Shown piece by piece: positions 58,321 to 58,562 of a stretch of 64,000 bases of DNA (position 1 is the stretch's first letter; each line of letters starts with the position of its first letter). Both the position numbers and the translations under genes were made by a program. The notes under the pieces are model-generated. The model made no database searches, was not told the DNA's origin, and was given only the letters and a program-made list of their open reading frames with translations. The stretch is taken from assembly GCF_003334335.1 (NCBI RefSeq), contig NZ_QOWQ01000003.1; one strand, 5' to 3'. The stretch is from Escherichia coli. Its GTDB lineage: Bacteria > Pseudomonadota > Gammaproteobacteria > Enterobacterales > Enterobacteriaceae.

Positions 58321-58342
58321 AGGCGGCGCAATTGCGCCGCCT
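58321..58342 (+). terminator. Palindromic hairpin immediately after katE
   Basis: Near-perfect palindrome AGGCGGCGCAATTGCGCCGCCT 5 nt after the katE stop; no strong T-run, so terminator function is inferred. Confidence 0.5.
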
Positions 58343-58370
58343 CAAATGATTTACATAGTGCGCTTTGTTT

Positions 58371-58562
58371 ATGCCGGATGCGGCGTGAACGCCTTATCCG
58401 GCCTACAAAACTGTGCAAATTCAATATATTGCAGGAAACACGTAGGCCTGATAAGCGAAGCGCATCAGGCAGTTTTGCGTTTGTCAGCAGTCTCAAGCGG
58501 CGCAGTTACGCCGCCTTTGTAGGAATTAATCGCCGGATGCAAGGTTCACGCCGCATCTGGCA
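58371..58562. repeat. REP / BIME cluster (three or more REP units)
   Basis: ATGCCGGATGCGGCGTGAACGCCTTATCCGGCCTAC, inverted GTAGGCCTGATAAGCGAAGCGCATCAGGCA, and CGCCGGATGCAAGGTTCACGCCGCATCTGGCA are canonical REP units, between katE and chbG. Confidence 0.7.

Follow-up and report, generated by a model that had tools for sequence, protein, structure and literature searches.

BIME-1 elements are defined as single-copy units in which a Y and a Z1 REP unit surround a long L linker, where an IHF site is frequent (Ton-Hoang et al., 2012), and their length is given in the literature as about 140 bp. The element described here, located between katE and chbG of Escherichia coli, shares with BIME-1 (RIP/RIB) a Y and a Z1 unit in inverse orientation around an L linker with an IHF site, in a single copy of about 140–150 bp. 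It also resembles BIME-1 in its location, where convergent genes have their 3' ends, and in its presence or absence according to the strain. No essential difference was found, the katE-chbG locus adding a decayed Y unit that is oriented like Z1. The cluster is an already known, textbook repeat of E. coli. Besides, it holds a pair of flanking hairpins that lies outside the published BIME-1 definitions surveyed.

Two further systems are close to this locus. Like MITEs and REPINs, the 152-bp unit has inverted ends, an apparent direct duplication of its target, and both filled and empty sites. However, the BIME-1 duplication is variable (14–26 bp) and comprises a whole hairpin, whereas the duplications made by ordinary transposases are short and of fixed length. 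IS200/IS605-type enzymes, including the REP-associated TnpA, are not known to make a target duplication. The outer ends of BIME-1 also differ from the cleavage sites given for TnpA(REP) in Ton-Hoang et al. (2012). The 3' UTR terminator-stabilisers of the REP325/naRNA4 type show the same GC-rich REP hairpins, a transcript 3' end past a REP stem and a Rho site nearby. They differ in that REP325 is a six-fold tandem array within an operon, whereas katE-chbG lies under the naRNA4 threshold (Rfam RF02564, 39.7 bits for a gathering score of 59.5), and this assignment was rejected. In a recent preprint, REP325 is described as both a terminator and a stabiliser, and convergent genes with a REP between them are reported to be expressed at a higher level; terminal REPs show no general link to mRNA half-life in the same work.

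Anatomy of the katE-chbG spacer

Within the 64-kb stretch of E. coli DNA analysed as a whole (the window), katE (56055–58316, + strand, stop codon TGA at 58314–58316) and chbG (58574–59323, − strand, stop codon TAA at 58574–58576) were placed from the ORF list and the K-12 annotation. The two convergent genes are separated by a spacer of 257 bp (58317–58573), which corresponds at 100% identity to positions 1816129–1816385 of MG1655, the offset between window and MG1655 coordinates being 1,757,812. Spacer-crossing ORFs of 68, 71 and 107 aa were treated as spurious. The last chbG codons contain CCGATAAC twice, 15 bp apart (58583–58605), and this sequence is present as a single copy in E. albertii. 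The RefSeq feature table of MG1655 holds no REP features. The cluster shares both sequence and coordinates with REP129 of the K-12 MG1655 annotation, located at 1816186–1816374, i.e., window 58374–58562, and assigned there to the REPs between convergent genes (bioRxiv 10.64898/2026.03.23.713779, supplement).

The preliminary description of this region had announced at least three REP units in alternating orientation, ending 12 nt before the chbG stop codon, and had called for their typing. The three units are indeed present, and alignment to the consensus sequences allowed each of them to be typed. Known Y and Z1 consensus sequences were used at first, and the Y consensus then re-emerged from the aligned paralogues. 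The first unit, U1 (58372–58406, + strand), is a Y-type REP/PU that matches the Y consensus at 35/35 positions, with the CTAC tail on its right and an internal stem mismatch in its fold; its sequence is invariant across paralogues and its RNA hairpin reaches −21.3 kcal/mol. The second, U2 (58442–58471, − strand), is a Z1-type REP/PU, with GTAG on its left, and therefore stands tail-to-tail with U1. It scored 28/30 with one mismatch against the initial Z1 consensus and 30/30 against the consensus derived from the copies, and it is kept in the paralogues. Within the window, only U1 and U2 carry an exact copy of the canonical REP tail CTTATCMGGCCTAC.

The third unit, U3 (58519–58562, − strand), is a decayed Y-type REP composed of GTAGG (58519–58523), a 9-nt insertion and a stem-loop (58533–58561). 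Its score against Y was 21 on the − strand and 14 on the + strand, for a window background of 6.3 ± 1.5, and on the − strand 28 positions matched and 1 did not, while both sequences needed a gap of 2 nt, the stem of U3 having undergone a deletion and an insertion of this length. Thus, the core of U3 lies about 9.5 SD over background, yet the 9-nt insertion parts GTAGG from the stem and the inner stem is lost. On the + strand, its RNA hairpin has a stability of −18.2 kcal/mol. Because U2 and U3 share one direction, the units do not all alternate, contrary to what had been proposed. The distance from the cluster end to the chbG stop codon was also slightly different, being 11 nt, and on the chbG mRNA the U3 stem lies 11–12 nt downstream of the stop. 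When the full-length cluster was folded, a long-range pairing appeared between U1 and U3, as these units are in inverse orientation; during transcription, the local hairpins would be favoured over this pairing. A weak REP-like signal was also seen at 11921–12000 (Y score of 15, with CGTATCCGGCGTAC at 11963 carrying two mismatches), and it is the sole REP-like sequence of the window besides the katE-chbG cluster.

The REP/BIME cluster recognised earlier could be defined more exactly, since it corresponds to K-12 REP129, in which the separate, decayed Y unit comes after a BIME-1 composed of Y, L linker and Z1. The BIME-1 unit covers about 152 bp (58342–58495, ends ± 2 nt) and is formed, from left to right, by a left flank motif, the Y REP, the L linker, the Z1 REP and a right flank motif. 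Alignment with the paralogues located at tkt-phb, sbp-pfkA and fepA-entD indicated that the right flank motif repeats the left one in inverted orientation, and the ends of the element were placed in 19 copies. One Y and one Z1, inversely oriented, surround a long linker of the L type, and there is a single Y-L-Z1 unit. U3, which points like Z1, is separated from this unit by a hairpin (P2, see below). A BIME-2, i.e., tandem copies of Y + Z2 with a short S linker, was considered and rejected, U2 scoring 28 on Z1 vs 18 on Z2 and the linker being of the long L type.

The conserved L linker (58407–58441, + strand, 35 nt), which lies between U1 and U2 and had been missed in the earlier reading of the sequence together with P2, carries at 58419–58431 the sequence ATTCAATATATTG, which shows one mismatch to the IHF consensus WATCAANNNNTTR. 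The predicted binding of IHF fits this consensus as well as the frequent IHF sites reported in the literature for this linker, and IHF is probably bound to the linker DNA. In the O111:H8 strain 9662, which has the long form of the spacer, the linker (window 58407–58446) differs at many positions (AAAGTCGTATAAATTCAATGTATTGCAGTTTATTGGTAGAT) and the rest is identical; another BIME-1 copy may have been the source of a conversion of this linker. In the strains ws5-3 and GF75, a 1,277-bp IS621 (IS110 family) is inserted inside the Z1 unit U2, at window 58445/58446, with AG (CT on the REP strand) at both junctions. IS621 prefers REP targets, and the insertions in U2 fit this preference.

The earlier reading of the locus also held that such clusters bind gyrase and IHF. 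The cluster could be mainly a gyrase or IHF site on the DNA, acting in chromosome organisation or in supercoil relief between convergent genes, with an incidental role at the RNA level; this would agree with the IHF consensus of the linker and with published work in which BIME-1 contains IHF sites and BIMEs are bound by gyrase. However, the gyrase cleavage enrichment in the literature read concerns BIME-2 (Y + Z2 units), so that gyrase binding is a poorer fit for the BIME-1 of katE-chbG. Moreover, the cluster is dispensable, as about 64% of E. coli genomes are without the element at katE-chbG, and according to the preprint on REP325 this array has no role in chromosome compaction and no long-range contacts exist between REPs. 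We consider a main role of this kind improbable, and favour a BIME-1 that is transcribed within the 3' UTR of katE.

Two related hairpins border the BIME-1 unit

A near-perfect palindrome of 22 nt had been described right after katE. A palindrome is present there, and it proved to be perfect and 24 nt long: P1, GAGGCGGCGCAATTGCGCCGCCTC (58320–58343), is made of two arms of 12 nt with no loop and starts 3 nt past the katE stop codon. It is the second-longest perfect hairpin of the window, its arm of 12 comparing with a longest arm of 10 in 20 shuffles, and as RNA it folds with −23.4 kcal/mol (z = −5.1). The longest perfect hairpin of the window, with 15-bp arms, lies at 34413–34445 (AAATGGACGGCGATG TAT CATCGCCGTCCATTT) and looks, from its sequence, like a bidirectional terminator.

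A second hairpin, P2, AGCGGCGCAGTTACGCCGCCT, followed by TTTG, was found at 58496–58516. It matches P1 at 17/20 positions, with 0 such matches expected by chance, and its fold has a stability of −11.6 kcal/mol on the + strand and −15.4 kcal/mol on the − strand. Its orthologue in E. albertii retains GGCGGCGCAACTGCGCCGCC, followed by TTTT. P1 and P2 abut the opposite ends of the BIME-1 unit. On this arrangement, P1 is interpreted as the left copy and P2 as the right copy of a duplicated target hairpin, P1 then not being an independent feature, and the three differences between the two copies would fit an element at katE-chbG that is old or has moved between lineages. The REP129 annotation is a single feature that merges BIME-1, P2 and U3 and omits P1. 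The spacer is a composite, formed by a BIME-1 core, its flanking hairpin copies P1 and P2, and a separate decayed Y REP (U3), and the division of REP129 into its component parts is the only annotation change called for.

Given its stability and its position 3 nt past katE, P1 might by itself be taken for the Rho-independent terminator of katE, the downstream REPs being untranscribed passengers, all the more since the equivalent hairpins at other BIME-1 loci resemble terminators, with A-runs and T-runs. However, P1 is followed by AAAUGAUUU instead of a U-tract, and a terminator scan of positions 57900–59000 on both strands returned no terminator-like site. Furthermore, P1 is unique and mappable, yet no 3' end was called there by Term-seq in MG1655 (Adams et al., 2021, PMC7815308), the + strand end being located 223 nt further on, at 58566. 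Termination at P1 thus appears quite unlikely. In our preferred reading, P1 is a hairpin that the BIME-1 insertion would have separated from its T-run, and the katE transcript runs on into the element.

Flanking hairpins at other BIME-1 loci

Scanning a genome collection with the linker motif yielded at least 15 E. albertii copies, plus chance matches; among the matches listed, none was a reference copy from E. coli. In 14 usable E. coli and E. albertii copies of BIME-1, the left flank was then compared with the right one, flanks of different loci serving as control. The median alignment score of same-locus flanks was 12.5, for a cross-locus score of 6.26 ± 1.22 (maximum 12, n = 182), and same-locus flanks reached a score of at least 10 in 10 of the 14 copies; flanking repeats were missing in the other 4/14. 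The repeated piece was 14–26 nt long and formed a clear GC-rich hairpin in 9/10 cases, the left copy often coming after an A-run and the right copy often before a T-run. The hairpin sequence is locus-specific, i.e., alike within a locus and different between loci, and it is the arrangement that the paralogues share.

The direction of the relationship is shown by four filled/empty pairs, in which exactly one hairpin was found when the site is empty and two copies around the element when it is filled. These pairs are ysgA-metE (filled in E. albertii and empty in K-12), idi-lysS, tkt-prohibitin, for which both forms exist within E. coli, and yhaH-yhaJ, for which E. albertii and E. coli were compared. 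From the locus-specific repeated flanks and the single hairpin at empty sites, insertion of BIME-1 therefore appears to duplicate a whole terminator-like hairpin. Some polymorphisms have another origin. In the mscK-rsmS spacer of E. coli, the terminator hairpin of the BIME-free allele has no relation to the two hairpins bordering BIME-1; since the hairpins are unrelated at both mscK-rsmS and katE-chbG, these polymorphisms are whole-spacer replacements instead of clean insertions or excisions. At yhaH-yhaJ, the hairpin loop is reverse-complemented between the two species, being GTAAA in E. coli and TTTAC in E. albertii.

The inverted flank motifs, the flank duplication in 10 of 14 copies and the four empty sites are features of a MITE-like sequence. 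BIME-1 could behave like a MITE of about 152 bp with terminator hairpins as its targets, each of which would be copied in full upon insertion. Target structure would then determine how long the duplication is (14–26 bp), and P1/P2 would be an old scar of this process; we put this forward as a tentative model that is somewhat less likely than not. In the duplication route proposed, both strands would be cut at one and the same palindrome foot and the gaps then filled in, which would explain a duplication as long as the hairpin. In the literature surveyed on RIP/RIB elements and on target-site duplication by BIMEs, the duplication of a flanking hairpin was not mentioned; the pattern may have been noted earlier in older primary papers. 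Excisions of whole BIME-1 elements were reportedly described in 1997 by Bachellier and colleagues in Genetics.

P1 and P2 could also be unrelated to insertion, and belong to a longer mobile or selected unit, or result from a local duplication, which would be kept to insulate the convergent genes. The two hairpin copies of ysgA-metE differ by a compensatory pair (GGC..GCC vs GGT..ACC), a change that keeps the hairpin and suggests selection on its structure. However, the hairpin does not travel with BIME-1, because its sequence varies from one locus to another and is alike within a locus, and the empty site holds exactly one hairpin copy at the four loci. We give little credence to this explanation, and the duplication of a pre-existing hairpin upon insertion of BIME-1 is retained.

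Two alleles of the spacer and history of the locus

The long allele, with the 257-bp spacer, was found in about 1,939 of the 5,426 complete E. coli genomes (about 36%), among them K-12 and B, and a variant form of it occurs in an O111:H8 strain. In the other genomes sampled, O157 strains included, the spacer measures 46 bp and its hairpin is unrelated. The last katE codons are CCT GCC TGA in the long allele and CCG GCG TAA in the short one, both reading Pro-Ala-stop. The short allele as a simple deletion of the long one was rejected, the hairpin being unrelated and the replaced segment beginning inside the last two katE codons; for the same reasons, it is not a clean empty site. At katE-chbG itself, no empty site was seen that holds one P-type hairpin, and, because the hairpin of the BIME-free allele is unrelated, insertion at this locus is deduced by analogy with the other loci. 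Visual inspection of the short allele pointed to a possible remnant of a Y REP (GGATAAGG-TCACGCC), which a rough estimate places within background.

In E. albertii NBRC 107761, there is no katE between cedA and chbG. One half of P1 is fused to the linker; Z1 and the right flank come next, and then a hairpin similar to P2 that is followed by TTTT, U3 not being present in this counterpart of the locus. The fusion of the half-P1 to the linker occurs at a GCAA microhomology, and ChbG ends two residues before that of E. coli. As E. albertii shares the site in part, the element is either old or has moved between lineages.

Transcript 3' end and predicted function

Mapping data for the 3' end of katE had been called for in the preliminary description, and a published Term-seq dataset provides them. 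In MG1655 grown in LB to an OD of 2.0, a + strand RNA 3' end was called at 1816378, i.e., window 58566, 5 nt past the U3 stem, with a mean read count of 1035 (Adams et al., 2021, supplementary file 1). This end was assigned to katE solely as the upstream gene on the + strand. As the peaks were called from uniquely mapped reads only, 3' ends within the repeated units U1 and U2 could be missed. An in-vitro Rho-binding (rut) peak on the + strand, at MG1655 1816342–1816449 (window 58530–58637), overlaps REP129, and in the presence of NusG the peak lies at 1816347–1816450 (bioRxiv 10.64898/2026.03.23.713779, supplement). For this peak, no bicyclomycin-sensitive transcript is listed. Nor is a bicyclomycin-sensitive region listed for katE or chbG, in an experiment performed at an OD of 0.5. 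At this density, katE is probably poorly expressed.

Together, the 3' end at 58566 and the Rho peak make the cluster most likely the 3' UTR of katE, with U3 as the end-protecting hairpin. The stabilisation of upstream mRNA that had been attributed to such clusters is consistent with a Term-seq 3' end located after U3, at the level of a correlation. The following sequence of events would account for these data. BIME-1 would have inserted beside a terminator-like hairpin, leaving a hairpin copy on each side, and this insertion would have parted P1 from the T-run that now comes after P2. With no U-tract next to the BIME-1 unit, P1 would be unable to terminate intrinsically, so that katE transcription would pass through P1, BIME-1 and P2. 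Transcription would then end, probably via Rho, in or just beyond U3, and the katE RNA would either end directly a few nt past the U3 hairpin or be trimmed back to it, the hairpin presumably shielding the mRNA from 3' exonucleases. Meanwhile, IHF would probably occupy the DNA of the L linker. We regard as likely the reading in which BIME-1 stands beside a duplicated hairpin, U3 is an older decayed Y REP, and katE RNA is transcribed through the cluster up to a Rho-dependent end near U3, which protects it.

An effect on translation is also possible, P1 being 3 nt past the katE stop and U3 11–12 nt past the chbG stop. REPs located within 15 nt of a stop codon are said to stall ribosomes, according to Liang, Rudd and Deutscher in 2015, and the stable hairpins near both stops may impede terminating ribosomes.

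The presence in this region of an independent sRNA with its own function (Rfam ES036/CssrF) is very improbable: the RF02751 model does match 58407–58449 above its gathering score (55.5 vs 37.6 bits), and, according to the literature, Northern blotting revealed CssrF in Shigella flexneri, where it lies between dacB and yhbZ, but this 43-nt model is the L linker of BIME-1, since it also matches this linker in five further copies whose loci are unrelated, the linker by itself does not fold stably (−3.5 kcal/mol, z = −0.65), the + strand shows no promoter-like site nearby, and the Shigella CssrF transcript, of about 290 nt, far exceeds the model. The preferred reading of the linker remains that of a BIME-1 component carried within the katE transcript. 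Elsewhere in the window, Rfam matches over the gathering score were obtained for rydB (6896–6956, − strand), RprA (12560–12667, + strand), STnc540 (37341–37499, − strand) and the Phe leader (41340–41464, − strand).

Implications for BIME-1 elements and katE

With the natural 257-bp and 46-bp forms of the spacer, the influence of a 3' UTR BIME on the expression of katE, a stress gene, can readily be tested, and the comparison of the two alleles leaves the katE coding sequence and promoter untouched. Beyond annotation, the sole result is that terminator hairpins are recurrently found duplicated around BIME-1. If true, it would mean that the hairpin beside the upstream gene loses its T-run and that the transcript of this gene is extended through the element. 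The recurrence bears on the old question of how BIME-1 inserts and would account for its position at the 3' ends of genes; if previously unreported, the duplication of the hairpin would provide a concrete handle on the spread of BIMEs.
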